A DNA stretch of 64,000 bases from Escherichia coli (lineage in GTDB: Bacteria > Pseudomonadota > Gammaproteobacteria > Enterobacterales > Enterobacteriaceae), in assembly GCF_013315695.1 (NCBI RefSeq), contig NZ_CP054354.1; one strand, 5' to 3'. Positions within the stretch are counted from its first letter, which is position 1, and the number at the start of each line of letters is the position of its first letter. Below are positions 3,918 to 61,589 of the stretch, one piece after another. Made by a program: the position numbers and the translations under genes. The notes beneath the pieces are model-generated. The model did not search any database. It saw nothing but the letters and a program-made list of their open reading frames with translations, and was not told where the DNA came from.

Positions 3918-3945
3918 AGCAGGGCGATAAACCCTGCCTTTCTCC
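3918..3945 (+). terminator. putative hairpin terminator
   Basis: agcaggg-cgataaa-ccctgc stem-loop followed by a T-rich tract, just after the stop at 3910-3912. Confidence 0.35.
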
Positions 3946-4004
3946 GCTGGCGCTTCCCCGTACGGAAGTCCGGCATCTCATTCACTAACTATGGAGATTA
4001 TGCC

Positions 4005-4271
4005 ATGAGACCATCAATTATCTTCGCAACCGCCGAGTATGTAAAGCGTCTGCGAGAAGAGTGCCTGCGGGAGAACAAACCCCTGCACCGCCATACCCGC
4101 TTCAGACGCCAGGAACTGGCACCGGATGAGATTAACCCGGACGTCCTGGCGATGGGCGGTCATATCGCCAGACGCTGCAGTGAGCAGAAGCGGGTACGTA
4201 TCCCCGCCATGAAAGTCAGCGAATGGGGCCACCTGCTCCGCGCGCTTGAAATTGAACGGGTCTGTCACTGA
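4005..4271 (+). CDS. hypothetical protein, 88 aa
   Basis: ATG 4005 with GGAGA 7 nt upstream (MRPSIIFATAEY...); ORF 3909..4271. Confidence 0.4.
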   Translation: MRPSIIFATAEYVKRLREECLRENKPLHRHTRFRRQELAPDEINPDVLAMGGHIARRCSEQKRVRIPAMKVSEWGHLLRALEIERVCH

Positions 4272-4447
4272 TTAACCCCTGCCGTCTGCCTGTGCAGGTG
4301 GCAGGATGTGTTCAGGTACTTTACCAGGAGGAACCGTGAGCAAGATGAAAAACATCACGACGTCTGTGTTGCATGGTGTCTCCACAAAAAACAGAAAAGG
4401 GAAACAGATTCTCTTTCATTCAGGGCCCGGGAGGGCTGGAGATAACA

Positions 4448-4837
4448 ATGAAGTCTTGTTTTGATACTGACAAAGCTTTTCATATGTCTTTTGATGAAGT
4501 CACTTTCAACGCTGACAGAATTCGCTCAAAACTGGAACTATTATCCGAAGAACTAATGCCCCGTTGTGGTCTTGTTTATGAGCTATATCAGCGACGTTTG
4601 AGTGCTGCTATTGATAATTTTGTGGCCACATTGCCGACAGAACAACATCTACTGGTCCTGGAACTGGCCCGTGAGGAGTTTGATTACCTTTCCGCAGAAG
4701 AGATTGCTGAAGAAATACGCCGTGACTCAGAACGCGGCTATTGTTGTCATGGCTTTGAACGCAATTGCTGTCCTCTCGGTTGTGGGGATTTGGGCGATGA
4801 TTGCTGCGATGCTGCTGATTTGATGGAGGAACCGTGA
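4448..4837 (+). CDS. acidic protein with Cys-rich C-terminus, 129 aa
   Basis: ATG 4448 after GGAG (MKSCFDTDKAF...); many D/E; C-terminal CCHGFERNCCPLGCGDLGDDCCDAAD; stop TGA overlaps GTG start of rpn (GTGA). Confidence 0.5.
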   Translation: MKSCFDTDKAFHMSFDEVTFNADRIRSKLELLSEELMPRCGLVYELYQRRLSAAIDNFVATLPTEQHLLVLELAREEFDYLSAEEIAEEIRRDSERGYCCHGFERNCCPLGCGDLGDDCCDAADLMEEP

Positions 4838-5748
4838 GTAAGAAGAAAAACACCACAACGCCCACGCCGCATGATGCCGCGTTCCGGTCGTTCCTGGCGA
4901 ATCCCGACGTCGCCAGAGATTTTCTGGAACTGCATCTTCCTGCGGAGTACCGGCAGTTGTGCGACCTGTCCACGCTGAAGCTGGAACCCGCCACCTTTGT
5001 AGAGCCGGACCTGCATCAGTACGCCAGCGATATCCTCTGGAGCGTGAAAACCACCGGGGGTGAAGACGGCTATGTTTATACGCTCATCGAGCACCAGAGC
5101 ACAGAAAATCTGTACATGCCTTTTCGCATGTTACGCTACAGTGTGGCGGCGATGCAGAGACATCTGGAGCAGCACAAAACGTTGCCACTGGTGATTCCGG
5201 TGCTGTTCTATCACGGTGAGCGCAGCCCGTACCCGTACAGCATGAACTGGCTGGACTGTTTTGAGAATCCGGCACTTGCGGCTAAAATATACACAAAACC
5301 GTTTCCGCTGGTTGATATCACTGTCGTTGATGACAATGAAATCATGAATCATCGCCGGATGGCCGCACTGACGCTGCTGATGAAGCATATCCGCCATCGT
5401 GACATGATGGAGCTGCTGGACAAACTCCCGCAGGTCATGGTGGAAATTTCAGACGAGCAGGTGCGTGTTCTGATTCATTACATCGTTAACGCAGGGGACT
5501 CTGTATCACCGGAATTTATGCGGGCGCTGGCTGAGCGTCTGCCGCAGCATGAGGATAAACTGATGACTATCGCAGAACGTCTTGAGCAAAAAGGTCGCCA
5601 GGAAGGCAGGATGGAAGGACGCATGGAAGGAGCGCTTGAAAAAGCCCTGGCTATTGCGTGCCAGCTTCAGAAAATGGGGATGACGCCGGAGCAGATTAAG
5701 CAGGCTACCGGACTTTCCGATGACGAACTGAAGAAAATCACTCACTGA
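4834..5748 (+). CDS. rpn: Rpn-family recombination-promoting nuclease (YhgA-like, PD-(D/E)xK)
   Basis: 304 aa; N-terminal and core match the Rpn/YhgA-like family; C-terminal tail MTIAERLEQKGRQEGRMEGRMEG...; GTG start after GGAGG. Confidence 0.75.
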   Translation: MSKKKNTTTPTPHDAAFRSFLANPDVARDFLELHLPAEYRQLCDLSTLKLEPATFVEPDLHQYASDILWSVKTTGGEDGYVYTLIEHQSTENLYMPFRMLRYSVAAMQRHLEQHKTLPLVIPVLFYHGERSPYPYSMNWLDCFENPALAAKIYTKPFPLVDITVVDDNEIMNHRRMAALTLLMKHIRHRDMMELLDKLPQVMVEISDEQVRVLIHYIVNAGDSVSPEFMRALAERLPQHEDKLMTIAERLEQKGRQEGRMEGRMEGALEKALAIACQLQKMGMTPEQIKQATGLSDDELKKITH

Positions 5749-5761
5749 TGAGAACCGCAAA

Positions 5762-5786
5762 GCCCGGCAAAATCCCGGGCTTTTTT
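5762..5786 (+). terminator. rho-independent terminator after rpn
   Basis: gcccgg-caaaatc-ccgggc stem-loop followed by TTTTTT. Confidence 0.65.
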
Positions 5787-5810
5787 GCCTGCAGGAGCAG
5801 AGCAAACAGC

Positions 5811-5981
5811 ATGACGATTGCAGAACGTCTTATACAGAAAGGTTTTGAAAAAGGTGCTCTTGAAGTGGCGCGGGAAATAGCCTGCCGGCTGCGGGATATG
5901 GGCTGGACGCCGGAACGGATTCAGGAGGCGACCGGACTTTCCGGTGAAGAACTGAAAAAGCTGTTTCCTGATGAGCAGTAG
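5811..5981 (+). CDS. standalone Rpn C-terminal-tail-like small protein (RpnS-like)
   Basis: 56 aa from ATG 5811: MTIAERLIQKGFEKGALEVAREIACRLRDMGWTPERIQEATGLSGEELKKL closely parallels the last ~60 aa of the upstream Rpn. Confidence 0.55.
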   Translation: MTIAERLIQKGFEKGALEVAREIACRLRDMGWTPERIQEATGLSGEELKKLFPDEQ

Positions 5982-6011
5982 CCTGGCATTCTGCCAGGCT
6001 GTGAATCACGC

Positions 6012-6263
6012 TCACACATCCTCTGCCGTTTCCCCCAGTTCATTTTCCAGTCGCCTGATGATATCTGCCTTACGCATCCCCTGCATGTGAGGCAGCAGGT
6101 CACGGACTGAAAGTGCCTGGGTGGTCCTCCAGACGGTGACATCCACCTGCTCCGCATTTTCCCAGGCGTGCCATGTTCTCTGTGTCACGCCAAATTCTCT
6201 GGCCGCTTTTTCGCGTGACCAGAGCATGCTTTTTCGCCAGATTCGCAGTTCCCAGCCGGTCAT
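6012..6263 (-). CDS. XRE-like helix-turn-helix regulator
   Basis: 83 aa; ...REKAAREFGVTQRTWHAWEN... resembles an HTH DNA-binding motif; AT-rich promoter region with palindromes upstream. Confidence 0.55.
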   Translation of the reverse strand: MTGWELRIWRKSMLWSREKAAREFGVTQRTWHAWENAEQVDVTVWRTTQALSVRDLLPHMQGMRKADIIRRLENELGETAEDV

Positions 6264-6277
6264 AAAATACCTTTTAA

Positions 6278-6298
6278 AAAGTGAAAAAACTTCACTTT
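6278..6298. promoter_or_regulatory. palindromic operator-like site AAAGTGAA-N5-TTCACTTT
   Basis: Perfect 8-bp inverted arms with 5-nt spacer, just upstream of the minus-strand HTH gene start. Confidence 0.4.
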
Positions 6299-6344
6299 AT
6301 TTTATCACCATAATCACCAAATCAGCGCGAAAAATAAATGTGAA

Positions 6345-6365
6345 AAAGTGAAGAAATTTCACTTT
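6345..6365. promoter_or_regulatory. second palindromic operator-like site AAAGTGAA-N5-TTCACTTT
   Basis: Same arms as 6278..6298, 67 bp away. Confidence 0.4.
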
Positions 6366-6480
6366 TTTTAGTTGTAGATGTCGTGCTGTTTTCTCTGTTT
6401 TCACCTGTGCGGGAGTGGGTGTCAGTGACCACCACATGCCATTGTTGTGCCGTCGTTTTTCTTCAGTCGCGCCGGATGCA

Positions 6481-6795
6481 GCGCTCCCTGCACACCTTAC
6501 GGTGTGTAAGGCCACTGCGCCTGATGGCGCAGCTGTCTCTGCCTGTCTGCCGCCGCACTGCGGCCTGTTCTCCGCAGACGGACTTTCCGGGGAACATACA
6601 CGACCACATCCCGTTTCAGTTATCCAGGGGAGAGATGTACCAGCCACAAAACTTTTTGCCGCAGGCGTCAAAAACTTTTGCGTCTGCCCCCGGACAACTG
6701 CCCCGTGACGTGGTGAGCATCCCCCGTCGGAAAGGTCCACTGCGGGGAAATCCCCGAAGACCCGGACGGCAGAAGGAGCTTCGCTCCTCCGGGAA
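6481..6795. repeat. copy B of ~320-bp GC-rich noncoding repeat
   Basis: See copy A; lies directly upstream of the gene starting at 6841. Confidence 0.7.
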
Positions 6796-6840
6796 ATGAC
6801 CTGGCTGACCCGGCAGTCGTGACGATGAGGAGACAATGTG

Positions 6841-7689
6841 ATGAATCAGACTTTACCCACTGCTGACCTGAATACTGCCGGCACGACAGATGTTATTCCG
6901 TCTGTAGCTATCGACCGCATCATCGCGCAGCGTAACGAAGGTATTGCACTGTTCATGCAGGCGATGGAATGCCTGGCGACAGCGCGCAAGATTCTGCTCG
7001 ATGCGTCAGGTGATATTTTTCTTTACGGGTTTGAAGACTGCGTGACTGATTCCGTTCGTCGCATGGATAAGACGGAAGAAGCGAAAAGGAATATCACCCG
7101 TCTTGCCGACCGGAAAATCTGGGACCGCCTGATGACAGATACGGGCATGTACACCTTCATGAGTTCATGCCAGCGTGATGAGTGGAACAGCCAGCTGATG
7201 AGCGACACCTGTCCTGAAATCACCCTGGACAATGTACTGGCAACATTCCGCCATCTTAATGCCAGCAAGATGCAGACGTTTGAACAGGGGCTGATTGATG
7301 TCTACCGGAAATTGTCATGGGATTACAGAACCAATAATCCCTGCCGTCTGGGTAAGAAAATCATTATTGAAAACCTACTGTACCGCTGGAGTAACGGGCG
7401 TGTGACGCTGGACTGCAGCGGACGGGAGGCACTGGATGACCTGGTACGTCCGTTTTATCTGCTGGAGGGGCGCAACGTTCCTGACTTCAGGAACAGCATC
7501 GGGGCGCAGTATGGTGAATTTCTCGGGAACGGTGACAATGTCGGTAAGCTGTTAGAAGGGGAATATTTTACGGTGCGTGGCTACCAGAAAGGGACCGTAC
7601 ACATTGTCTTTAAGCGTTCTGACCTTGTTGAAAAACTGAATGATATTATTGCACGGCATTATCCTGGTGCATTGCCGCCACGAGTCTGA
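6841..7689 (+). CDS. hypothetical leading-region protein, ~282 aa
   Basis: ORF 6838..7689; ATG 6841 with GAGGAG 8 nt upstream; no recognisable motif. Confidence 0.55.
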   Translation: MNQTLPTADLNTAGTTDVIPSVAIDRIIAQRNEGIALFMQAMECLATARKILLDASGDIFLYGFEDCVTDSVRRMDKTEEAKRNITRLADRKIWDRLMTDTGMYTFMSSCQRDEWNSQLMSDTCPEITLDNVLATFRHLNASKMQTFEQGLIDVYRKLSWDYRTNNPCRLGKKIIIENLLYRWSNGRVTLDCSGREALDDLVRPFYLLEGRNVPDFRNSIGAQYGEFLGNGDNVGKLLEGEYFTVRGYQKGTVHIVFKRSDLVEKLNDIIARHYPGALPPRV

Positions 7690-7755
7690 TTAAACAGAAA
7701 AGCCCAGGTATTTATGCCGGGGCTTTTTTTTCTGTAATCATCATAATCTCAGAAC

Positions 7756-7774
7756 ACAATGTGACATTGTCACA
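7756..7774. promoter_or_regulatory. overlapping perfect palindromes ACAATGT-G-ACATTGT / TGTGACA-T-TGTCACA
   Basis: Read directly from sequence between two convergent genes. Confidence 0.3.
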
Positions 7775-8110
7775 TCAATTGTTGTTCATATCGATGCCAT
7801 CTTTCCTGCCTGAATCTGTCTTTTTAGGTGCTGTTTTAGAGGAAGAACGGCGGGATGGTTTTTTCGATTCTGCTTCCCGAATAATGTCACGAAGTGCTTT
7901 CTCTCCTACTTCATATCCTGCATTTTTGAGCGTGTCACGAACATCTGTCAGTGTATAACCCTTTGTCCTTACCAGGATAATGATGTCATCACGAATGGCA
8001 TCAAGAAAATCACGCAATGTTTTCCGTTGAGCGGTGAGGTCTGGCAATTCCGATAAAGCAGCTTTTGCCAGCTGGATGTCATCATCTGAGTAAAATTTTT
8101 TAGACGCCAT
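7775..8110 (-). CDS. hypothetical basic protein next to oriT, possibly DNA-binding
   Basis: ORF 7775..8116; ATG at 8110 with GGAGA upstream; Lys/Arg-rich C-terminus; divergent from nikA. Confidence 0.45.
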   Translation of the reverse strand: MASKKFYSDDDIQLAKAALSELPDLTAQRKTLRDFLDAIRDDIIILVRTKGYTLTDVRDTLKNAGYEVGEKALRDIIREAESKKPSRRSSSKTAPKKTDSGRKDGIDMNNN

Positions 8111-23876: not shown

Positions 23877-26042
23877 TTATTGTTTTATTCCGTCTTTATC
23901 ATCTCTATTAATATTTTTCAGTTTTTCTTCACGAACGCCAGGTGTTCTGCGCATATTGGTATTACCTCCGGCAATAATATCTTTGACTGAAGAAACCATA
24001 TTCCCCAGCATATTAACACCGTCACGTCCGCCCAGAAAATTAATTACATGGTCAGGCAGATAAGCCTGAAGCGCAAAAACGGCTGCAACCAGTGTGGTAC
24101 AGGCGCGGGCATAAATCATCAAAAATCCCGCCATGCTGAACACACCCGTCACAGAGTTTATCTGGACATTCATCAGTGCAGCAGCATACAGCGCATTCAG
24201 GATTGTGCCGCCGGCCACGATGGCGACTGATGCAAAAAAGAACCCGAACACCATCAGCAGCGGTCTGATCATGCTGTCTATCAGGTAGATGTAACCGTAA
24301 GCGGCTCGGCTTCCCCGGTCCTGACTTGTTCCCAGATGGGTGGCGGCCCACAGGGGGCCAGCAGCACATCCAATCAGTACGCTGACTATCCAGTTGCCGA
24401 TGCCGGTCATCCAGAAGATAAACGGGATAAACGGCAGGTAAATGGATAACGAAAAACCGGCACAAAACAGCAAAAACAGCAGGAAGTAGAGTGGTGGTGC
24501 GGATGCTTCCAGAAAAGCCTTTGCGGCGTCAGATAATCCGCTGACGGCATTGACCAGTCGACCAAAAACGGAGTTGCTGCCGGCCGTGGAAAGTACCCTG
24601 ACGGTGGTATAACCCGCCCAGATGGTTTCGGTCGTAACCATGGTGTAATCGCCAATGTTTTTCATTTTTATCAACGGATTTAGTTGATTAGTTGTGGTAC
24701 CTGTACCGCTCAGATAAGTGGCTGTCCAGTTAGTCATTCTTGTTAGGTTAAACCCAATCAATTTTAAGATTGCTGATTGAGGGTCTTGAGTTTTAGATGC
24801 GTGGTATTCACTGGCAGAGGTGGCGGTTCCCAGTGCAGGAGTATACGCTGAGTTCTGCAGCTGTGCCTGGTAAGCCCCCTTGACTTCCTTCAGGAATTCC
24901 GTATCCCCGGCTTCGCCCAGTGACGAGACGCCACTCACTGTAGGAGCACGGTCGGCCAGTTCAGCCAGTCGCTGGTTGGCGGTGGCAAAGGTCTGGTACC
25001 AGGCGCCCAGGGCAACCCAGCCGTAGGTGGTCAGGTAGGATTTCAGCTGCTCCCTGCGCTCAGTTTCTGCGTTATCTGCCGGCAACGCCTTCTGCACCGT
25101 TTCTTCATACCGGTTGGCTGCCTTCTGAATACGGCTTTCAATATCCGGCAGGTTGCCGTTACCCGTGTCGCGCCGGGTCCGGTATGCCGACACAAATTCC
25201 TGCGCCGCGCTGTCCAGGTCACGGAGCATGGTATCCATGGCGGAGCGCTGTGCCGTCAGAACCCCCTGATATTCCGTTTCAATGAAGGGATTGAAAAAAT
25301 GGGCCAGCGCGGACTGCTTGTTACTGCCGTTTCCTTTCACGGAGAGACTCACACTCCCGCAGGTGGCGCTGCCATTTGAGACGGTGACGGTATATCTGCC
25401 ATTCTCTGTCCGTGAGGATTCGCTCATGGGCGGCGTTGATGAACGTGCGGTACGGTTAAAGTCATCGAGGCCCGTATTCATGGCGTGTTTGCACAGTTCC
25501 ATCTCCAGAATTCCCCGTGCTGCCGTGCGGGTGGAGACATGTACTGGCTGTACGGTCATTGAATAGCCTTCAGCAATGTTTTCTGCCGCTGTCTGAACCA
25601 TGATATTGGCGGAACCGATGCCCATGATGGATGCGCCCCACAGCATGACCAGTTGCGCCAGACTCCAGCCGGAAGCGGTGGGCACAATCATCAAAAATCC
25701 ACTCACGACACTGAGTATGCCGACGACGTCCCGTCCGTTGTTAAAGACACTGCCCTGGTGTCCCGTGCGGACAGCATGACGGATACCAATAAACAGAAAC
25801 CAGACTATCCCCATCGTGGCGATAATTGCGTTAAACACCATGAACAGGTTGCCAATGATGGTGTTGCTGCTGGCTGTCAGGGGATTTGTGACCACATCAC
25901 CAAAAATGGTGACCAGTGCCTGGCGCGACAGGTCATCCGGATTGGTGGCGGCACTCACAATGTCCTGATAGGTGACGAAAGCCTGTGCAGGTACGGCAGC
26001 CAGCGCCAGACCTGCACTCAGTGCTCTGGGTATGATTTTCAC
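23877..26042 (-). CDS. traY: TraY-like integral membrane protein
   Basis: 721 aa; multiple TM segments; size and position as R64 TraY. Confidence 0.65.
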   Translation of the reverse strand: MKIIPRALSAGLALAAVPAQAFVTYQDIVSAATNPDDLSRQALVTIFGDVVTNPLTASSNTIIGNLFMVFNAIIATMGIVWFLFIGIRHAVRTGHQGSVFNNGRDVVGILSVVSGFLMIVPTASGWSLAQLVMLWGASIMGIGSANIMVQTAAENIAEGYSMTVQPVHVSTRTAARGILEMELCKHAMNTGLDDFNRTARSSTPPMSESSRTENGRYTVTVSNGSATCGSVSLSVKGNGSNKQSALAHFFNPFIETEYQGVLTAQRSAMDTMLRDLDSAAQEFVSAYRTRRDTGNGNLPDIESRIQKAANRYEETVQKALPADNAETERREQLKSYLTTYGWVALGAWYQTFATANQRLAELADRAPTVSGVSSLGEAGDTEFLKEVKGAYQAQLQNSAYTPALGTATSASEYHASKTQDPQSAILKLIGFNLTRMTNWTATYLSGTGTTTNQLNPLIKMKNIGDYTMVTTETIWAGYTTVRVLSTAGSNSVFGRLVNAVSGLSDAAKAFLEASAPPLYFLLFLLFCAGFSLSIYLPFIPFIFWMTGIGNWIVSVLIGCAAGPLWAATHLGTSQDRGSRAAYGYIYLIDSMIRPLLMVFGFFFASVAIVAGGTILNALYAAALMNVQINSVTGVFSMAGFLMIYARACTTLVAAVFALQAYLPDHVINFLGGRDGVNMLGNMVSSVKDIIAGGNTNMRRTPGVREEKLKNINRDDKDGIKQ

Positions 26043-26116
26043 GGTAACTCCGGAACCGAAGGGGATGCCCGGGCATCAGCCCCCGGAATGAGGAAAAGAA
26101 ATTGCAGACCGGACAG

Positions 26117-26686
26117 TCAGTACTGCCGGTGGGTAATGGCCAGCCATGTGGCCTGTTTCCAGCCGTGCCGGGCCTGCAGGTAATCGGGGAATGTGCCCTG
26201 TTCGTCCTCGCTGACCCGACGTTCATTCAGCTGCCAGAGGCGGTATGACGCAATCAGGGCTTTTGAGGCACACAGTGCTGCAATGGTGCTCATCAGTAAC
26301 AGGCAGACCAGGATACGTATCAGGGTGATGACCGGCAGTGCGGTGGCCGCAAGGGCCATACCACACAGCAGAAGTACCGGTATCATCATCAGCCAGAATC
26401 CTGTCCGCCAGAACATCCTGCGACGTCGCAGACGCCGGTCCAGTTCGTCGACCGTCAGTCCGCTGGCCCTGACCGCTTCCTCCCAGGTCATACAGACCGG
26501 ACTCTCCGGTTGCCGGTCGGGCATGAGGCGCTTCAGGCGCGTTTTATGCTGGTCCAGCATATGGCGGCAGCTGCGCAGCATCCAGCGGGTTTCGGCCAGT
26601 GGTGCGAACAGATTTATCCCTATATCACCGATGCGGCGGAGACGGGGGGCCGGTTTTTTTTCGTCGATGCTGTTGTCGTCTTTCAT
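26117..26686 (-). CDS. traX: TraX-like membrane protein
   Basis: 189 aa; TM segments; position in operon. Confidence 0.5.
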   Translation of the reverse strand: MKDDNSIDEKKPAPRLRRIGDIGINLFAPLAETRWMLRSCRHMLDQHKTRLKRLMPDRQPESPVCMTWEEAVRASGLTVDELDRRLRRRRMFWRTGFWLMMIPVLLLCGMALAATALPVITLIRILVCLLLMSTIAALCASKALIASYRLWQLNERRVSEDEQGTFPDYLQARHGWKQATWLAITHRQY

Positions 26687-27888
26687 CTTACGCTCCCCTG
26701 GCTCATGGCCTGTGACAGTTCGCCAAGGCGCTGTCCGTAATACTGCCGTGCGGCCAGCGCAAGTTGCTGCCCGGCGATAACGTTACCCTGACGAATCTGC
26801 TCTTTCAGATCGTTCATCTGCCAGTTCAGCAGGGCGGTGGTGCGCAGCAGCTCACGGAGAAGGTTATCGCCTTCCATGCCCTGCAGATCCTGCTGCCAGT
26901 CGGTGTTGGCATACCGTCTGCCGGCTTCAAAGGCCTCAAACTCCCGCTGGCTCATGTGGCCACGGGTGCGGGCTTCTGATGATGCGGTCCGGTCAAAATA
27001 TGCCGCAGCTGACGGTGACTGCAGGGCTTCAGTCAGTGCCCCACGGGTGGCTTCATTAGGGGTACTGTCAGCAATCAGTGACAGCTGCGGATGAGAGGCG
27101 GCATCGATGATGCCGTTGTATTCATTCTGCAGGCCCACATACGTGCGCCCGGTCTGTGTGCCCACTTCTCCTTTCCCCGGGGCACGACCCGCTGACGGTC
27201 TGGCGGTGTTTTTCATATAAGCCGTCGCGGCATCAATCTGTTTCTGATCCCAGGTGAGAGCGGCCGGGGTATCTGCTGTGCCTGCGCCCTGATAGAGCGA
27301 TCGTACCTGGCTGTCTCCGCCCGGCAGATCGCCCACGGCAGGGCAGACATCAGTTCCGCCAAAGCGGGCATACTCCGCTTCCGTGCAGTAACCGGCGTGG
27401 ATGCCGGCACTGTCATACGCCTCGCGGACCGGGGAGTCCGCAGCCCGGGAGAGACGTTCCCGGATGGGTTTACTGCTGACCCCTCCCCCCTGACTCAGAC
27501 GTGCCGCTGCAGACGCTGCTGCCCGGCGGCTTTCTGCTGCAATGCCGGACGCGGATTCACTGCAGATGGAGTCCGGCACGCTGAAGCTTTTCCTGGCCTC
27601 CTCGAGGCGGTGTGTTTCATTACTGAATATCATCTGCTGACGGGTGGCCTGCCCGTCCTGGGCAATGACGGTGGCCAGTTTTTCTGAGTTCTGGGTGATG
27701 GCTGTGCCGGTGGCCGTCTGCATACGGACCATTTCCTCCATGATGCCCTGTATGGTGGCCAGCTCCGGCATGATCTGTCGGGTGACGGGCTGACTGGACA
27801 CAACATTCACAGAGTAGGCATGGGTGGCAGGGATAACCGCACAGCCTACAAGGAGTGCAAGCAGTGTGGTTGCAGATTGTCTTTGCAT
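26683..27888 (-). CDS. traW: TraW-like lipoprotein
   Basis: Start moved to internal ATG 27888 giving MQRQSATTLLALLVGC (lipobox); ~401 aa; ORF track 26683..27993. Confidence 0.55.
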   Translation of the reverse strand: MQRQSATTLLALLVGCAVIPATHAYSVNVVSSQPVTRQIMPELATIQGIMEEMVRMQTATGTAITQNSEKLATVIAQDGQATRQQMIFSNETHRLEEARKSFSVPDSICSESASGIAAESRRAAASAAARLSQGGGVSSKPIRERLSRAADSPVREAYDSAGIHAGYCTEAEYARFGGTDVCPAVGDLPGGDSQVRSLYQGAGTADTPAALTWDQKQIDAATAYMKNTARPSAGRAPGKGEVGTQTGRTYVGLQNEYNGIIDAASHPQLSLIADSTPNEATRGALTEALQSPSAAAYFDRTASSEARTRGHMSQREFEAFEAGRRYANTDWQQDLQGMEGDNLLRELLRTTALLNWQMNDLKEQIRQGNVIAGQQLALAARQYYGQRLGELSQAMSQGSVR

Positions 27889-47464: not shown

Positions 47465-48850
47465 CTAGCTGGCTTTAACAATGTAGTTGAATGCAATGTT
47501 TTTGGGACGCATTTCTGTGGTACTCCCCTGTGCCCAGTATGGCATACCACTATGATGCCCTTTCAGCCATCCGCCACGTTCGTGATAGACGCCTGATTGA
47601 TCGGCCTGATAACTCAGGAGCTGTCTGTTCCGATCACCATCAAGTCCCTTCCCGTTATCCCAGCCACGGATAAAAACACCGCGCAGATCGGGTAACTTAC
47701 AGCTAGGATAAGCACGGGCAAGCTGAGGATACCGGGAACAGGAAAACGACTGGCCGTTCATCAACAGATAGCCTTGTGGAGGAGTGGCAGATGGCCACGG
47801 GATAGGGCTTCCCACAGGGTAGGATTCAAAGCCAACCCACACACCGGATTGGCACGAAAGTATTGCCCCTTTGCTGTCGCGGCCTACAAGTCCATCTGGT
47901 GAACACTTTGTATTTGCTACGGCTGTTTTATCCAGCTGTAAATACTCACCTGTGGAAAGGCGACCGTCAGACCGGACTGTCCCCCCACTGACTTTTCCTC
48001 CTTTGATTTCCCCTGTGGTTATAATTCCTTTACCACCGACTGCGCGTATCCACTGGCTGTCTGTCATCGTAAAACCGCCACCATAGGTGATGTTCTTCCA
48101 GCCTTTATCATTTTTGGTGATTAACCAGCCGTTTTCGCTTGTAACATCACCTTTCAGTGTTGCACTTTGTCCATTGACGTTTCCTGCATTGTTCAGGTTG
48201 TTCCCTCCCATATTGATGGCCGTGTTCATCTGGTTCAGCTCCGGTCGTCCCGGTACCTGAAAGCGATACAGGCGATCGCTTTCCTGCAGGTCATCCCCCA
48301 TCATTACGATGGCGATGTGCCCGCCATTGCAGCTGAGTCCATAGTCGCCGGGTTTATCTGTCCATCCACCAAAAACACCGGTTGCTGTGCCATTTTTTCC
48401 TATAAATCCGCCCAGACCGGGGAGCAGGCTGGCGATACTGCGCAGGGCATCGTCTTTGATATTCTCCCCTCCGGTGGAGCAGGTCAGGGCCTCCAGACGA
48501 CCGGTACTCGTGTTACGACGGATGCCGGTGGTATAACTCTGCCCAAAGGGCGAGCGGTTAAGACCCTTCAGATATCCTTTCCGGATTAACTCATCCGCCG
48601 TGAAGGTGGCAGGAAGCGTTCCGCTATGCAGGCGGGCATTGTTATCGGCGATGTAGGTCCTGGCTGCAGTATTGTAGGCATCTGCATGAAATGCGGCGCT
48701 CTGGTTGCGCATTTCATTCAGGTAGTCTTCAATGTAAGACCAGAACAGCGGCATGAGCAGGCTGATGACAACCAGTCCTCCCAGAATTTCAAGAAGTGCA
48801 AAACCTTTATCGTTGTCTTTTTGCATAGTCGTTCCCTCCGGTATTACCAA
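47465..48850 (-). CDS. pilV: PilV-like minor pilin / tip adhesin
   Basis: 461 aa; prepilin-like KG|FALLEILGG with Glu at +5; Gly-rich; C-terminal region resembles a phage tail-collar/fibre-type domain. Confidence 0.7.
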   Translation of the reverse strand: MVIPEGTTMQKDNDKGFALLEILGGLVVISLLMPLFWSYIEDYLNEMRNQSAAFHADAYNTAARTYIADNNARLHSGTLPATFTADELIRKGYLKGLNRSPFGQSYTTGIRRNTSTGRLEALTCSTGGENIKDDALRSIASLLPGLGGFIGKNGTATGVFGGWTDKPGDYGLSCNGGHIAIVMMGDDLQESDRLYRFQVPGRPELNQMNTAINMGGNNLNNAGNVNGQSATLKGDVTSENGWLITKNDKGWKNITYGGGFTMTDSQWIRAVGGKGIITTGEIKGGKVSGGTVRSDGRLSTGEYLQLDKTAVANTKCSPDGLVGRDSKGAILSCQSGVWVGFESYPVGSPIPWPSATPPQGYLLMNGQSFSCSRYPQLARAYPSCKLPDLRGVFIRGWDNGKGLDGDRNRQLLSYQADQSGVYHERGGWLKGHHSGMPYWAQGSTTEMRPKNIAFNYIVKAS

Positions 48851-49470
48851 AGGCCACCGGGATAAAAAGTAAATGCGTACTGTGACGCGCAGAGAAACGG
48901 CCCAAAGGGAAGTTCTCTGGTAATGCGTCGTTGTCTGTTACACCACAGATAAAGTAAGGCTCCGCCTGCTGCCGTTGCGACAATCCAGGGGATGTCTCCC
49001 GGCGGGGACCAGATGGCAATACCGGCAATCAGAAAAACATCGCCCAGGCCTATGGTTTCTGTTTTCCTGCGGTAAGAGGTGTATTGCCTGAACAGAAGCA
49101 ACAGCAGGAACCAGAACCCTGCACTGCACAGGCCTGTCAGCCAGTCTCCCTGCCAGAGACGAAATGCGCTGCCGCTTATCAGATACATGATGGTGAAGGG
49201 CCGGGGAAGACGGCAGGATGCAGCATCCGTCAGGGTCATCAGTGTCATACATCCGGTCATTATCGTCATAAACAGCACCCCGACAGCGCTGTCATTCTGA
49301 TAAAGACGCAGGATAATGGCGGCAGCTGCAAGCATCCCGCTCATCAGCGCCAGCCCATGGTGAGGGGGGCGGGCATTCATCCGGGAGAGTCGATAGCGAC
49401 TCATCTGAACGGCCAGACACTGTATTACCACGGTTATGGCGACCAGCAGTGCCGGGATTATCTGGAGCAT
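48844..49470 (-). CDS. pilU: PilU-like prepilin peptidase
   Basis: 208 aa; polytopic membrane protein; position after pilT. Confidence 0.7.
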   Translation of the reverse strand: MLQIIPALLVAITVVIQCLAVQMSRYRLSRMNARPPHHGLALMSGMLAAAAIILRLYQNDSAVGVLFMTIMTGCMTLMTLTDAASCRLPRPFTIMYLISGSAFRLWQGDWLTGLCSAGFWFLLLLLFRQYTSYRRKTETIGLGDVFLIAGIAIWSPPGDIPWIVATAAGGALLYLWCNRQRRITRELPFGPFLCASQYAFTFYPGGLW

Positions 49471-49485
49471 GGCAGTTCTCCCGGA

Positions 49486-49971
49486 CTAACGTCCCTGCAT
49501 GTAAGCGCTGTAAATCTGCCGGGCGTATTTCATCCGGCGGTGAGTGTTACTTTTACTGAAGCCGGCGTTATAACTGCCGAGGCATTCCCAGTTTACGCCG
49601 CATCGCTGAAAATGCCGGGCGAGGATCCATGCTCCGGTCTGAATATTCAGGCAGACATTATTCAACAGATCTTTCTCACTCCGGATAATGCCCATTTTTT
49701 TCAGCCCGGGAATATGTGTGGAGTTAATCTGCATTATCCCGTAATCGGTACTGATAATTTTCCCACTGTCATTCCTGTTATGATTAATGGCCCGGGGATT
49801 CAGACTGCTTTCCCTGCGGGCAATAATTTTGAGTAATCCTGGATCAATGGAATAACGTTTTCCGGCGGTAATAAAACAACGATCATATTGTTTGTCCTGT
49901 GGGGATGCCTGTGCGGAAGGAAGTGAGCATAACAGTGAAAAAATCACTGTCAGGATAAATAACCTGTTCAT
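49486..49971 (-). CDS. pilT: PilT-like lytic transglycosylase
   Basis: 161 aa; signal peptide; SLT-like ...ARRESSLNPRAIN... and GIMQIN. Confidence 0.75.
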   Translation of the reverse strand: MNRLFILTVIFSLLCSLPSAQASPQDKQYDRCFITAGKRYSIDPGLLKIIARRESSLNPRAINHNRNDSGKIISTDYGIMQINSTHIPGLKKMGIIRSEKDLLNNVCLNIQTGAWILARHFQRCGVNWECLGSYNAGFSKSNTHRRMKYARQIYSAYMQGR

Positions 49972-50015
49972 ACAGTGACCTTAAATAAAGCGCCCGGGCG
50001 GGCGCTGATGAATGA

Positions 50016-50552
50016 TTAACTGTTGGTTTCCAGTTTGATAGTAGTTTTATCTGCGTTACATACTGTAGACGGGTCAACTTTATTCGTCACATTGCCGTTG
50101 ATTTTTGTAAACATGGATGAACTGCGCAGGCTGGTGACCAGATCAATACAGTTTTTCTTCGGCACATTGCTGGATTCAATAACGTAGGAGTATTTATCTG
50201 AACTGACTTTGATGGTTACCGCACCACCCCAGGCATTTTTCGCCTTATTACCACCGGCGATCATATCGGCAGGCAGGCCACCACTTTCGGTCAGGATTTT
50301 GACGTAGTCAGTACCTGTATACTGCCCCTGGAATTTTTGGGCTTTCATTTTGGTGGCGATTGTCTGCAGGTTTTTGAGTTCCTTCTGGTTGTCTGAAGAG
50401 GACAGGGTATCGGACATCAGTCCCATCACGGCACCAATAACAATGGCAGCGACGACCAGAACACCGAGAACTTCCAGCAGGGTCATGCCTTTATCATCGT
50501 TCTGAAGGTGACGAATATTATGTTCTGAATACGAAGAGGTTATGACGCTCAT
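50016..50552 (-). CDS. pilS: PilS-like type IVb major prepilin
   Basis: 178 aa; long leader then G|MTLLEVLGVLVV with Glu at +5. Confidence 0.8.
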   Translation of the reverse strand: MSVITSSYSEHNIRHLQNDDKGMTLLEVLGVLVVAAIVIGAVMGLMSDTLSSSDNQKELKNLQTIATKMKAQKFQGQYTGTDYVKILTESGGLPADMIAGGNKAKNAWGGAVTIKVSSDKYSYVIESSNVPKKNCIDLVTSLRSSSMFTKINGNVTNKVDPSTVCNADKTTIKLETNS

Positions 50553-50613
50553 ATTAGCTCCTGAGATTGGTAAAACAGAATTTGGATCGAGGGGAATATA
50601 AAGGATGCTGTGT

Positions 50614-59247: not shown

Positions 59248-60942
59248 TTAAACCTGTTGTGGTTCTGAGTTATCCGGAGCGGTTACCGGTTCGCTGACAT
59301 CCGGAACCTTTTCCGGGGCAGGCATGACCAGTGGACGTGTCAGGGCTGTAAGTCCTTCACCGGATAAACCCACCTCTTTCAGCAGGGAGTCGATGAGCGG
59401 AGCCTGTGTACGGTAAGCCAGAGCGGCGGTTACTGCCTGTTCAGCGAGATTTCCGCCACTTATGTCGGTTGTTGCTGTTTTACCGCGGGTAACACCGCCA
59501 TTCAGACCATCCACCTGAATGATTTTAATACCGTCAATGGATTTCATTGGTTCTGTGGACTTCTCTATGACGGCAGGTAATGCATCCAGCAGGGCAAGAC
59601 GGAAGCGGAGGCTGGTCTGCTCATCCGAAAGCACGTTAATGGCATCGTTCAGTGCGCGCTGTGCTTCTGCTTCTGCCAGACCTTTCTGACGGGTGGCCTC
59701 CGCCAGTTCAATAATTGCTGCTGCCTGGAGTTCGGCTGCTTCTTTTTCAGCCTGTGCGCGAACCGTCAGTTCAACCGCTTTCGTTTCAGCTTCCTGAGCA
59801 GCAGCAATCAGGGCAACCTGTTTGGTACGGTCGGCCTCCGCAGTCTGGCGGGTGGTTTCCACATCCTGCTGGGCCTGTACGGCCTCAGCCAGTGCTTTAC
59901 TTGCCCGGGCTTCTGCCTGTGACTGCTCTTCCGATTTTGCCGCCACGGCAATGGCTCTGGCCTGGCTGGCGATTTCGGTTGCCTGCTGTTGCTCAATTTC
60001 CCGTATGGCCACTTCCCGTTCGGCTTCGACCTGGCGGGTACGCACTATCTGCTGTCGTTCGATTTCGGCTTCCTCTATCTTACGTTCAGCCAGAATTCGC
60101 GCGGATTCTGCTTCACGACGTCGTTCAGCTTCAATAGCAGCAATACTGGCACTCTGCTCTGCCGTACGGGTTTTTACCCGTTGTTGTTGCTCCAGAGTCA
60201 TGAAGGCTTCCTGCTGTTCAATCTCCAGACGTCGGGAGAGTGCATCCCGGTTTTTTTCCCTGATGGCCACTTCAACATCCTGCTCAACTTCGTTGCGTTC
60301 GCGACGACGACGTTCTGTTTCCTGGGTCAGAAGGGTCAGGCCTTCAGCATCAAAGGCATTGTCAGGATTAAAATGTACCCGTGCAGTCTGGTTGAAACTT
60401 GTCAGCGACACACTTTCAAGCTCCAGACCGTTTTTGGATAAGTCTTCCGCAACGGTGTTCTGCACACCCTGAACAAAGTTCTCGCGGGCATCCTGTAAAT
60501 CCTGCATGCTCATTCTGGCCGCCGTGGCCCGTAGGGCATCAACAAATTTATCCTCGACCAGACTACGCAGATCTTCAGGTGTGAGCGTGCGTTGTCCCAG
60601 CGTCTGGGCTGCAGTGGATATTCCTTCGGCTGATGGTTTTACCCGAAGAAAAAAGGCAACGGCAACATCAACACGCATGCGGTCGCGGGTTATGAGACTT
60701 TCAGCCGCTGCACGACTGACTTCCAGCTTCAGGGTGTTCATGTTGACGGGAATTGTTTCGTGAAAAATGGGCATAACAATTGCACCGCCACTCATTACCA
60801 CTTTTTGGCCTCCCAGACCTGTGCGGACAAAGGCCTGCTCTGCCGATGCCCGGCGGTACAGGCGGGCAAATATCAGCCCGATAACGAACAGGGTGAGGAC
60901 CAGCGCTATAACGGTAAACAACCATCCCGGAAGATTAAACAT
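59248..60942 (-). CDS. yqiK: flotillin-like SPFH-domain protein (YqiK-like)
   Basis: 564 aa; N-terminal TM, SPFH region, long Ala/Glu/Gln/Arg coiled coil. Confidence 0.7.
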   Translation of the reverse strand: MFNLPGWLFTVIALVLTLFVIGLIFARLYRRASAEQAFVRTGLGGQKVVMSGGAIVMPIFHETIPVNMNTLKLEVSRAAAESLITRDRMRVDVAVAFFLRVKPSAEGISTAAQTLGQRTLTPEDLRSLVEDKFVDALRATAARMSMQDLQDARENFVQGVQNTVAEDLSKNGLELESVSLTSFNQTARVHFNPDNAFDAEGLTLLTQETERRRRERNEVEQDVEVAIREKNRDALSRRLEIEQQEAFMTLEQQQRVKTRTAEQSASIAAIEAERRREAESARILAERKIEEAEIERQQIVRTRQVEAEREVAIREIEQQQATEIASQARAIAVAAKSEEQSQAEARASKALAEAVQAQQDVETTRQTAEADRTKQVALIAAAQEAETKAVELTVRAQAEKEAAELQAAAIIELAEATRQKGLAEAEAQRALNDAINVLSDEQTSLRFRLALLDALPAVIEKSTEPMKSIDGIKIIQVDGLNGGVTRGKTATTDISGGNLAEQAVTAALAYRTQAPLIDSLLKEVGLSGEGLTALTRPLVMPAPEKVPDVSEPVTAPDNSEPQQV

Positions 60943-60968
60943 AGTGAGAACCTCTGTATATGTCGGGA

Positions 60969-61589
60969 TTAAAGAACATCCGGCCAGGGATTCAGTTCGC
61001 CCAGCCAGCGGGAACCGGAAAGACGGCAGACAATAATCACTTTGTCTCCTCGTCTGAATTCTTTCCCGGCCTCCGGCTCCAGCAACAGGTAATGAACCTG
61101 CCCGAAGCGGTCTGTGAAGCGACCTTCACAGGGGGAACCCGCCACTGCGTGATAACCAGTGATGGTGGCCATACAGCCGATGAATGCCTCCTCGGTGAGC
61201 GCCGTTGTTTCATCACGGGGTAACCAGGGGGCAATCAGTCTGCCGGTGCGGTGTACGAGAGGACATGTCAGCAGCAGGCAAAGTGGTGCAAGGAGAATGT
61301 TCGGAGCAGGAGCCTGCAGCAGATGAATAATAAGACCCTGCAGGAGAATGCCGGATATACCAAAAAAACCTGCCAGCATACAGAGGACGATCAGCAGGGG
61401 GATCCGTCCGATGTTCAGCCAGTCCAGCGCCTCTCCTGTCAGACCCTCCGGTAAATCAGGTGTATCCATAGCTGAAGAGAGGGAGTGTCCGCAGAGCAGG
61501 GCGATAAGTTCAGCGATACCAGTAAGCAGAACAAAAGTCAGGGCTGCCAGATAGGGTGCGTTATACGCGGTAAGTAACGTCAGTGTCAT
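60969..61589 (-). CDS. yqiJ: NfeD-like membrane protein (YqiJ-like)
   Basis: 206 aa; multiple TM segments; immediately upstream of the flotillin gene, the conserved NfeD-SPFH pairing. Confidence 0.6.
   Translation of the reverse strand: MTLTLLTAYNAPYLAALTFVLLTGIAELIALLCGHSLSSAMDTPDLPEGLTGEALDWLNIGRIPLLIVLCMLAGFFGISGILLQGLIIHLLQAPAPNILLAPLCLLLTCPLVHRTGRLIAPWLPRDETTALTEEAFIGCMATITGYHAVAGSPCEGRFTDRFGQVHYLLLEPEAGKEFRRGDKVIIVCRLSGSRWLGELNPWPDVL

Follow-up and report, generated by a model that had tools for sequence, protein, structure and literature searches.

Does the pilus of a conjugative plasmid end in the tip of a phage tail fiber, and what would such a tip do? The question is raised by pilV, an open reading frame (ORF) on the minus strand at 47465..48850 of the window, the 64,000-nucleotide stretch of Escherichia coli DNA analyzed here. 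The initial annotation described the product as a PilV-like adhesin whose C-terminal third resembles the collar and receptor-binding motifs of phage tail fibers, and it suggested a lectin-type tip domain that sets mating-partner specificity. The C-terminus of PilV is a genuine tail-fiber collar-type module, both by sequence and by predicted fold. With a probability of about 0.72, PilV is the tip adhesin of an IncB/O/K/Z-type plasmid (I-complex, mating pair formation class MPF_I), its head is derived from a phage fiber, and its recipient specificity is fixed.

The identification as PilV holds. The Pfam family Shufflon_N (PF04917) matches with an E-value of 2.8e-99 (333.1 bits against a cut-off of 27.5), and NCBIfam gives weak, uninformative pseudopilin matches. 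The gene is the last of a pil operon with the order pilQ (ATPase), pilR, pilS (major pilin), pilT (transglycosylase), pilU (prepilin peptidase), and pilV. A plasmid identical to the window in this region, NZ_CP103535.1, is typed as conjugative, MPF_I, and IncI1/B/O, and the DNA from 46000 to 50600 is 100% identical in many E. coli plasmids. Residues are numbered below as in the ORF list, where the protein has 461 amino acids (aa) starting from a TTG codon.

A tail-fiber collar module at the end of PilV

The similarity to tail fibers was found in three independent libraries. The Pfam Phage Tail Collar family (PF07484) matches aa 347-394 (E 3.2e-13, 49.8 bits against a gathering score of 24), and it scores 52.2 bits on the shufflon cassette alone, which is defined below. 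This domain core lies at 47669..47812 (minus strand), is conserved with phage fibers, and contains Cys371 and Cys384. In a sequence search of the PDB the best match is the tip of T4 gp37 (2xgf, E 2.2e-16), with aa 342-403 of PilV aligned to residues 27-88 and the last strand, aa 443-459, aligned to residues 224-240. The next match is a short tail fiber (9cuy, E 5e-12). From the 2xgf alignment and from an alignment of collar cassettes (A2, below), the collar fold in PilV has a split topology with an N-terminal part, an insertion, and a closing C-terminal strand. Nineteen PHROGs families are matched, nearly all of them tail-fiber or tail families, with a best E-value of 1e-42. E-values of 1e-13 to 1e-42 across the three libraries and concordant fold searches rule out a chance or compositional resemblance.

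The resemblance is confined to the C-terminal 129 aa, which make up 28% of the protein, since aa 1-331 searched alone against PHROGs matched no family. Some PHROG alignments of the whole protein begin at aa ~213-240, but the same search rejects the possibility that the similarity reaches into the constant part of PilV. The initial annotation was right about the C-terminal location and put the extent somewhat too high at a third. The two peptides that it quoted, MNGQSFSCSRYPQLARAY (aa 362-379) and LPDLRGVFIRGWDNG (aa 385-399), are present and are of the collar type. They belong, however, to a scaffold that PilV shares with phage fibers, and specificity is more likely to be determined by the insert at aa ~404-442, where the cassettes differ from one another. 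The Pfam, PDB, and fold searches of PilV turned up no lectin family.

The predicted structure also has the tail-collar fold that had been proposed for the C-terminus. The AlphaFold2 (AF2) model of full-length PilV, built on a 102-sequence alignment, has a mean predicted local distance difference test (pLDDT) score of 84.8. It shows a long N-terminal pilin helix (aa 15-69), a constant part with pLDDT mostly above 90, and a collar region (aa 340-400) with pLDDT of 80-95. The score drops to 44-73 at aa ~400-450 and rises again in the last strand, where a strand is predicted at aa 455-459. An AF2 model of the cassette alone has a pLDDT of 63, below the full-length run, and it does not resolve the insert either. 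The top three Foldseek matches in the PDB are gp37 (2xgf) and gp12 (5iv5 and 1ocy), and they are the only ones with a probability of 1.0. Among the BFVD viral models there are 50 matches at E<=1e-3, and the named ones are tail collar, tail fiber, or related tail proteins.

The cassette and its shufflon

The collar homology begins a few residues past the sequence CQSG (aa 333-336). These residues are encoded by the sfx crossover site GTGCCAATCCGGTGTGTGG at 47837..47855 (minus strand, 19 bp), which is the sole sfx in the window and is known as repeat-g in the shufflons of IncK2 plasmids (PMC5350095). Its 13-bp core, GTGCCAATCCGGT, has one exact copy in the 64 kb, at 47843-47855 on the minus strand. 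The cassette runs from CQSG to the stop codon at 47465..47854 (minus strand, 129 aa). Judged by these boundaries, the collar module is one complete shufflon cassette, from sfx to stop, and it sits exactly in the shufflon-variable part of PilV. Past the collar core lies the variable insert (47525..47641, minus strand, aa 404-442), the hypervariable block of alignment A2. It contains the PilV-specific motif GHH(S/N)GM and is the candidate receptor-contact region. The conserved C-terminal strand EMRPKNIAFNYIVKAS (47468..47524, minus strand) then closes the collar domain; it aligns to the last strand of 2xgf and is nearly invariant in A2.

Is the collar a general property of PilV variants? To compare the C-termini, sfx-anchored cassettes were translated from three plasmids: R64 (seven cassettes), L002 (six cassettes and six sfx sites), and the window (one cassette). 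L002 is NZ_LR883004, an IncK1 plasmid that is 99.4% identical to the window over the region. Pfam Collar is absent from all seven R64 cassettes and from the five other cassettes of L002, and only the window-type cassette matches. The comparison with the R64 variants that the initial annotation had in mind therefore gave a negative answer, and the idea that they share the collar domain was rejected. The non-collar cassettes of R64 and L002 are short Cys-rich segments without a known domain. In L002 the collar cassette, which differs from that of the window by one residue, forms one invertible segment with a 116-aa cassette. The corresponding segment of R64 consists of a 117-aa cassette, homologous to the 116-aa cassette of L002, and an unrelated 73-aa Cys-rich cassette.

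The collar cassette is found in other shufflons as well. The epidemic IncK plasmid pCT has a 100% identical copy as one of six cassettes in an active shufflon. In Salmonella plasmids a collar cassette with 66% identity is flanked by sfx sites and accompanied by Rci, while the PilV constant region is just 42% identical. An exhaustive search retrieved 5010 PilV-like proteins. For most of them the alignment stops at aa ~339-342, and in a minority it continues through the collar, as in P0125 with 46% identity over aa 12-460. Salmonella shufflons also have a gene of 168-182 aa with hexapeptide-repeat (Hexapep) domains inside the invertible segment (L006 5145-5693, minus strand; L005 7106-7612; L007 5145-5651). 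In L006 a 94-aa PilV cassette lies ~13 bp upstream of the start of this gene and is encoded on the same strand. A putative co-transcription with pilV would occur in one orientation only, and it would recall the phage chaperone genes that travel with a fiber cassette.

In the window most of the shufflon is gone. The sequence from 49000 to 47349 is collinear with L002 through pilV and for 116 bp past its stop. At the junction (~47349/47350) 2.2 kb of L002 (2801-5000) is missing, a stretch with the remainder of the shufflon and codons 1-273 of rci. The rci remnant at 47163..47350 (minus strand, 188 bp) corresponds to codons 274-336 of 375 by blastn against L002. It lies downstream of the RYTH motif, which we take, from inspection by eye, to hold the putative catalytic tyrosine of Rci. 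At 47150-47162 a 13-bp filler replaces 172 bp of L002, and at 47149 and below the two sequences are collinear again into traE. A second fossil, at 47350..47457 (plus strand), is the last 36 codons of an opposing 116-aa cassette of the R64-like type (FISFAVPVGASYQIISRPTQNYACGNGVFSVYTYQM followed by the stop); it matches the cassette of L002 and pCT and was cut by the deletion. Both fossils fall within the 470 bp that separate pilV from traE. Nothing is listed there in the gene table of the identical plasmid, but this table omits pseudogenes, and one number is missing from the series of its locus tags. The sequence of the gap matches rci, annotated as "site-specific integrase", in hundreds of plasmids. 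A deletion made by Rci between sfx sites was rejected as the cause because both junctions are away from sfx, one of them with ~2 bp of microhomology and the other with the 13-bp filler.

The consequence is a PilV that no longer varies. L002 and pCT have working shufflons, while the window has a single sfx in 64 kb and a remnant of rci. With the other cassettes and most of rci deleted, PilV is, as far as the sequence tells, locked in the collar form, and the window plasmid is unable to vary its tip. Of 5426 complete E. coli genomes, 96 have the locked configuration, counted as at least 80% coverage of an 801-bp probe that spans the cassette and both junctions. It is also found in Shigella and Klebsiella plasmids typed as conjugative. 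The cassette occurs with an identity of at least 90% in approximately 407 PLSDB plasmids, and many of the 297 plasmids with a match of at least 99% have it with 100% conservation.

A similar loss has occurred in related plasmids. The plasmids pO113, pO26_vir, and pSERB1 are described as having inactive shufflons and as the closest relatives of pCT (Cottell et al. 2011, PMC3377399). They have the same backbone family as the window and lack a working rci. In pO113 (NC_007365.1 11475-19861) there is one sfx, with the variant sequence GTGCCAATCCGGTATGTGG, and a collar cassette that is 94.6% identical in amino acid sequence is fused to pilV. However, its pilV DNA is ~80% identical to that of the window, and its surviving rci fragment corresponds to L002 5173-5302 rather than to 5001-5188 as in the window; its shufflon was therefore lost in a separate, independent event. 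Two independent losses that both ended on the collar form are suggestive, but with six cassettes this is not statistically meaningful.

The gene start and the neighboring genes fit a type IV pilin. In RefSeq the pilV start in the identical plasmid is an ATG at 48826, which gives 453 aa (WP_001168171.1). This start provides a normal prepilin leader, MQKDNDKG, followed by FALLE; therefore the eight codons between the TTG and the ATG (48827-48850, minus strand) are probably untranslated, and 461 aa is likely an overcall. The coding sequence of this minor pilin and predicted tip adhesin of the plasmid's thin type IVb pilus then becomes 47465..48826 (minus strand, 453 aa). The leader is at 48803..48826 (minus strand), with PilU cleavage predicted from the sequence before FALLE (Phe+1, Glu+5). 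Gly-1, a hydrophobic N-terminal helix, and Glu+5, which characterize type IV prepilins, are all found in MQKDNDKG/FALLEILGG. Pfam N_methyl matches aa 13-33 weakly, below its threshold (14.3 against 21.2 bits). The constant part of the mature protein, with the pilin helix, a globular domain, and a stalk, is encoded at 47856..48802 (minus strand, aa 17-332) and is the part that matches Shufflon_N. Directly upstream is pilU (48844..49470, minus strand), identified from its ORF and from the annotation of the identical plasmid as the prepilin peptidase, which would process PilS and PilV. Genes similar to traE, traF, traH, and traI lie downstream of pilV.

Farther from pilV, the annotation of the identical plasmid includes genes for a flotillin family member and for a protein with an OB fold just upstream of pilI, where the pil region starts (window ~59250-61560; 25249-27590 of that locus). 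It also has a 4.06-kb gene for an LPD7-domain protein (window ~37930-41990; 3929-7990 of that locus) between icmT/traK and the DotI/DotH-like tra genes. The counterpart region of R64 has a 3.77-kb LPD7-domain gene, and a phospholipase D gene separates it from the icmT/traK-like gene.

Phage relatives of the cassette

The phage relatives of the cassette are the extreme C-termini of tail fibers. By tblastn against phage genomes, the cassette from residue ~6-13 to residue 129, which is 91-96% of its length, matches these C-termini at 42-48% identity. Among the phages are P2, HK106 (in the lambda-like side fiber), Erwinia phage EtG, and phages of Aeromonas, Yersinia, and Vibrio. In several of the phage records a tail-fiber-assembly (tfa) gene directly follows the match. 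In the protein database the matches with 41-50% identity are short ORFs named "phage tail protein", one of which (P0091) is found in phage-plasmid loci of the P1/p15B type. These loci (L008-L010) have six to nine Collar cassettes of 136-161 aa and a constant fiber gene. A recombinase gene of the resolvase family (Pfam Resolvase) adjoins the cassettes in two of the three loci, and a single Caudo_TAP chaperone gene is present in two of the three. Going by this gene content, the P1/p15B-type loci are the phage counterpart of the shufflon, built from homologous cassettes.

Alignment A2 contains 64 collar cassette sequences and has 24 invariant columns. A conserved N-terminal part (PxGxPxxWP...LPDLRGxFxRG...) is followed by a hypervariable insert and by a nearly invariant end (E.RP.N.AFNYIV.A). 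The PilV-type cassettes have the shortest insert, and GHH(S/N)GM is present in all of those retrieved. Many phage cassettes have a His-x-His motif just after the scaffold, which is absent at the equivalent position in PilV. Cys371 and Cys384 are extra residues in the PilV cassettes of E. coli, Salmonella, and Citrobacter, and the phage and Arsenophonus versions lack them; they may be an adaptation to folding in the periplasm. Distant PilV homologues (P0230, P0264, P0242, P0253, and others) have collar inserts of 70-107 aa, some with His-x-His and some with the sequence GDAIRNI that is typical of P1-type phage cassettes. Another homologue, P0266, has three tandem collar units.

The history of the cassette seems to involve more than one exchange between phages and pili. 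The inserts of two other PilV lineages (P0264 and P0230) match P1-type cassettes with 38-47% identity over the whole insert (E 1e-12 to 5e-18), whereas the insert in the window has only weak similarity to any phage cassette retrieved. It is proposed tentatively, at somewhat less than even odds, that the tail-fiber cassettes of phages and the tip cassettes of PilV belong to a common pool of receptor-binding modules. These would have moved repeatedly between two switching systems of unrelated mechanism, the Rci tyrosine-recombinase shufflons of plasmids and the resolvase-family P1/p15B-type loci. If this is true, related modules that bind the same surface receptors would set both the range of recipients of I-complex plasmids and the range of hosts of phages that infect the same bacteria. 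A corollary would be that successful E. coli plasmid lineages have more than once dropped the switch and kept the collar form, pointing to selection for its specificity.

Function, alternatives, and known systems

How would a phage-type module work at the end of a pilin? In the proposed mechanism, PilU would process PilV, which would be placed at the tip of the thin, flexible type IVb pilus. The first ~324 residues of the mature protein form the constant pilin part, and after CQSG the protein continues with a 125-residue module descended from the distal tip of a phage tail fiber, consisting of the collar scaffold (aa 343-403), the short variable insert (aa 404-442), and the closing strand (aa 443-461). 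The scaffold would present the insert, and the insert would bind a structure on the recipient surface, most likely the core of the lipopolysaccharide (LPS). This binding would stabilize mating pairs in liquid. In related plasmids the module belongs to a set of six or more alternative cassettes that the tyrosine recombinase Rci swaps onto pilV. In the window the illegitimate 2.2-kb deletion of the other cassettes and most of rci leaves the collar form only, which would give a single, fixed recipient specificity.

Several observations are consistent with this mechanism. The tail fibers of P1, Mu, and P2 use the LPS core. The summary literature on R64 describes PilV variants that bind recipient LPS and a C-terminal cassette that sets recipient specificity. 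From the likeness of the module to the R64 PilV cassettes and to phage fiber tips, we infer that it is an adhesin head. In pCT, liquid mating is lowered by pilS::aph, and with rci::aph the transfer to Salmonella falls while that to E. coli does not (PMC4083329).

Other points weigh against the proposed mechanism. Phage collar domains act as trimers and usually need a chaperone of the Tfa type. A hidden tail-fiber chaperone gene was sought in the window, and no Tfa homologue was found (tblastn with Tfa, best E 0.92); in relatives the invertible segment is filled by two cassettes and has no room for a Tfa gene. The candidate binding insert has low pLDDT (<50-66 in monomer models) and may not fold as a monomer. 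Because inserts of this cassette class lack a clear phage counterpart, the receptor analogy with phage fibers is weak for the part that matters. Lectin-type sugar binding and a role of the cassette in mating-partner specificity are argued from analogy with R64 and the phages. In addition, the loss of the shufflon could reflect relaxed selection on the thin pilus.

Carried further, relaxed selection would mean that the locus is decaying and that the collar-form PilV is an inert leftover. The loss of rci and five cassettes, with only fossils remaining, would fit such a decay, as would the fact that the thin pilus is dispensable for surface mating (PMC4083329). This is very improbable, however, given an intact pilV ORF and a cassette with 100% conservation in many of the closely matching plasmids. 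The locked form also persists in 96 complete E. coli genomes and in conjugative plasmids of Shigella and Klebsiella. In the identical plasmid pilI and pilL through pilV have normal products, although a decayed gene is possible since the table omits pseudogenes. It is also unlikely, if less so, that the frozen shufflon fixed an adhesin for colonization. The pCT paper notes speculation that this pilus type has a role in adhesion or biofilm formation, and it describes pO26_vir and pO113 as carrying virulence genes, with the shufflons of pO113, pO26_vir, and pSERB1 inactive (PMC3377399); pO113 was independently frozen on the collar cassette. On the other hand, pCT with an inactivated pilS formed biofilm as before and mated less in liquid (PMC4083329, Table 1). 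Bacterial surfaces are what the homologous phage modules target, and the frozen form is widespread in ordinary resistance plasmids. Roles in colonization and mating are not mutually exclusive.

A third alternative concerns the form of the head. Three PilV collar domains might assemble into one phage-like homotrimeric tip head, possibly around a metal ion bound by the GHH motif, and only as a trimer would they bind. In T4, gp37 and gp12 have their collar domains in trimeric fibers, and the same entries are the top fold matches. The poor folding of the insert as a monomer and the presence of GHH(S/N)GM in every PilV-type cassette retrieved would also be explained. In contrast, the same shufflon has small Cys-rich domains of no known family as its other cassettes, which argues against a trimer, as do the missing phage-type His-x-His and the lack of a chaperone gene. 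The extra Cys371 and Cys384 would suit a domain that folds independently in the periplasm. A trimer is doubtful on balance, and a fixed tip adhesin with a phage-type head is the preferred reading.

A fixed tip adhesin of this kind would have practical consequences. IncB/O/K/Z and IncK plasmids, pCT among them, are major vehicles for ESBL (extended-spectrum beta-lactamase) and AmpC genes, and in liquid they transfer better with the help of the thin pilus. If the reading is true, a large plasmid lineage has one fixed recipient specificity, which could be defined by experiment and perhaps blocked. Because the tip is a module of the phage-fiber type, knowledge of phage receptors could help to predict the recipient range of plasmids, and vice versa. 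Mutations in the LPS core by which recipients escape phages might also alter their uptake of these plasmids. The locus is a clean example of one binding module that is reused by two different DNA-switching systems.

Part of this picture has been reported before. Milman et al. (2023, NAR, PMC9881135) described a fusion of a shufflon PilV to a phage tail collar domain (UCP91044.1, locus CP084655.1) and proposed that the phage domain was repurposed for recipient specificity. In the literature search this was the only paper found to link PilV to a tail collar domain, and one further paper contains both terms. The Shufflon_N plus Collar architecture is recognized by Pfam, and NCBI annotates unfused copies of the cassette as "phage tail protein". 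Three points were not found stated in the searchable literature: that IncB/O/K/Z and IncK shufflons, that of pCT included, have the collar module as a regular cassette bounded by sfx; that the cassette is homologous from end to end to the tail-fiber cassettes of the P1/p15B type; and that a widespread plasmid lineage is locked on the collar cassette. These are details added to the known principles of PilV and tail fibers and not a new principle or kind of system.

Compared with known systems, PilV of the window has the same Pfam architecture (PF04917 plus PF07484) as the fusion of Milman et al., a likeness at the level of domain architecture. That fusion comes from a different locus, with two adjacent presumed pilus operons and inversions confirmed by long reads, whereas the window belongs to an epidemic E. 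coli plasmid family and is fixed. In R64 (IncI1), as in the window, pilV ends the pil operon, and its Shufflon_N constant region is 48% identical. R64 also has 19-bp sfx sites with the same conserved core, CQSG at the junction, and a variable, specificity-determining C-terminal cassette. However, none of its seven cassettes contains Collar or any other Pfam domain, the collar cassette of L002 takes the place of its 73-aa cassette, and its shufflon contrasts with the dead one of the window, which has one sfx and no rci.

Among phage structures, the PilV cassette has a predicted collar fold like that of the needle tip of T4 gp37 (2XGF) and the receptor-binding domain of gp12 (1OCY/5LYE). In gp37 a stretch of ~135 residues, forming the needle and head, separates the two collar parts, while in PilV there are ~40 residues. 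The P1/p15B-type cassettes and the tips of P2 and HK106 are closer, with homology over the whole cassette at 41-50% identity and with the N-terminal part, variable insert, and closing strand in common. The P1/p15B-type loci also resemble a shufflon in having many alternative Collar cassettes beside one constant fiber gene and a recombinase gene. Their recombinase is of the resolvase (serine) family, in contrast to the tyrosine recombinase Rci (Pfam Phage_integrase) of the plasmid relatives, and phage loci carry a Caudo_TAP/Tfa chaperone gene that the window lacks. The phage inserts have ~45-75 aa compared with ~40 in PilV, many of them with His-x-His, and the PilV group adds two cysteines. Overall the PilV cassette, which is fused to a pilin, is homologous to the phage modules and does not itself belong to the phage system.

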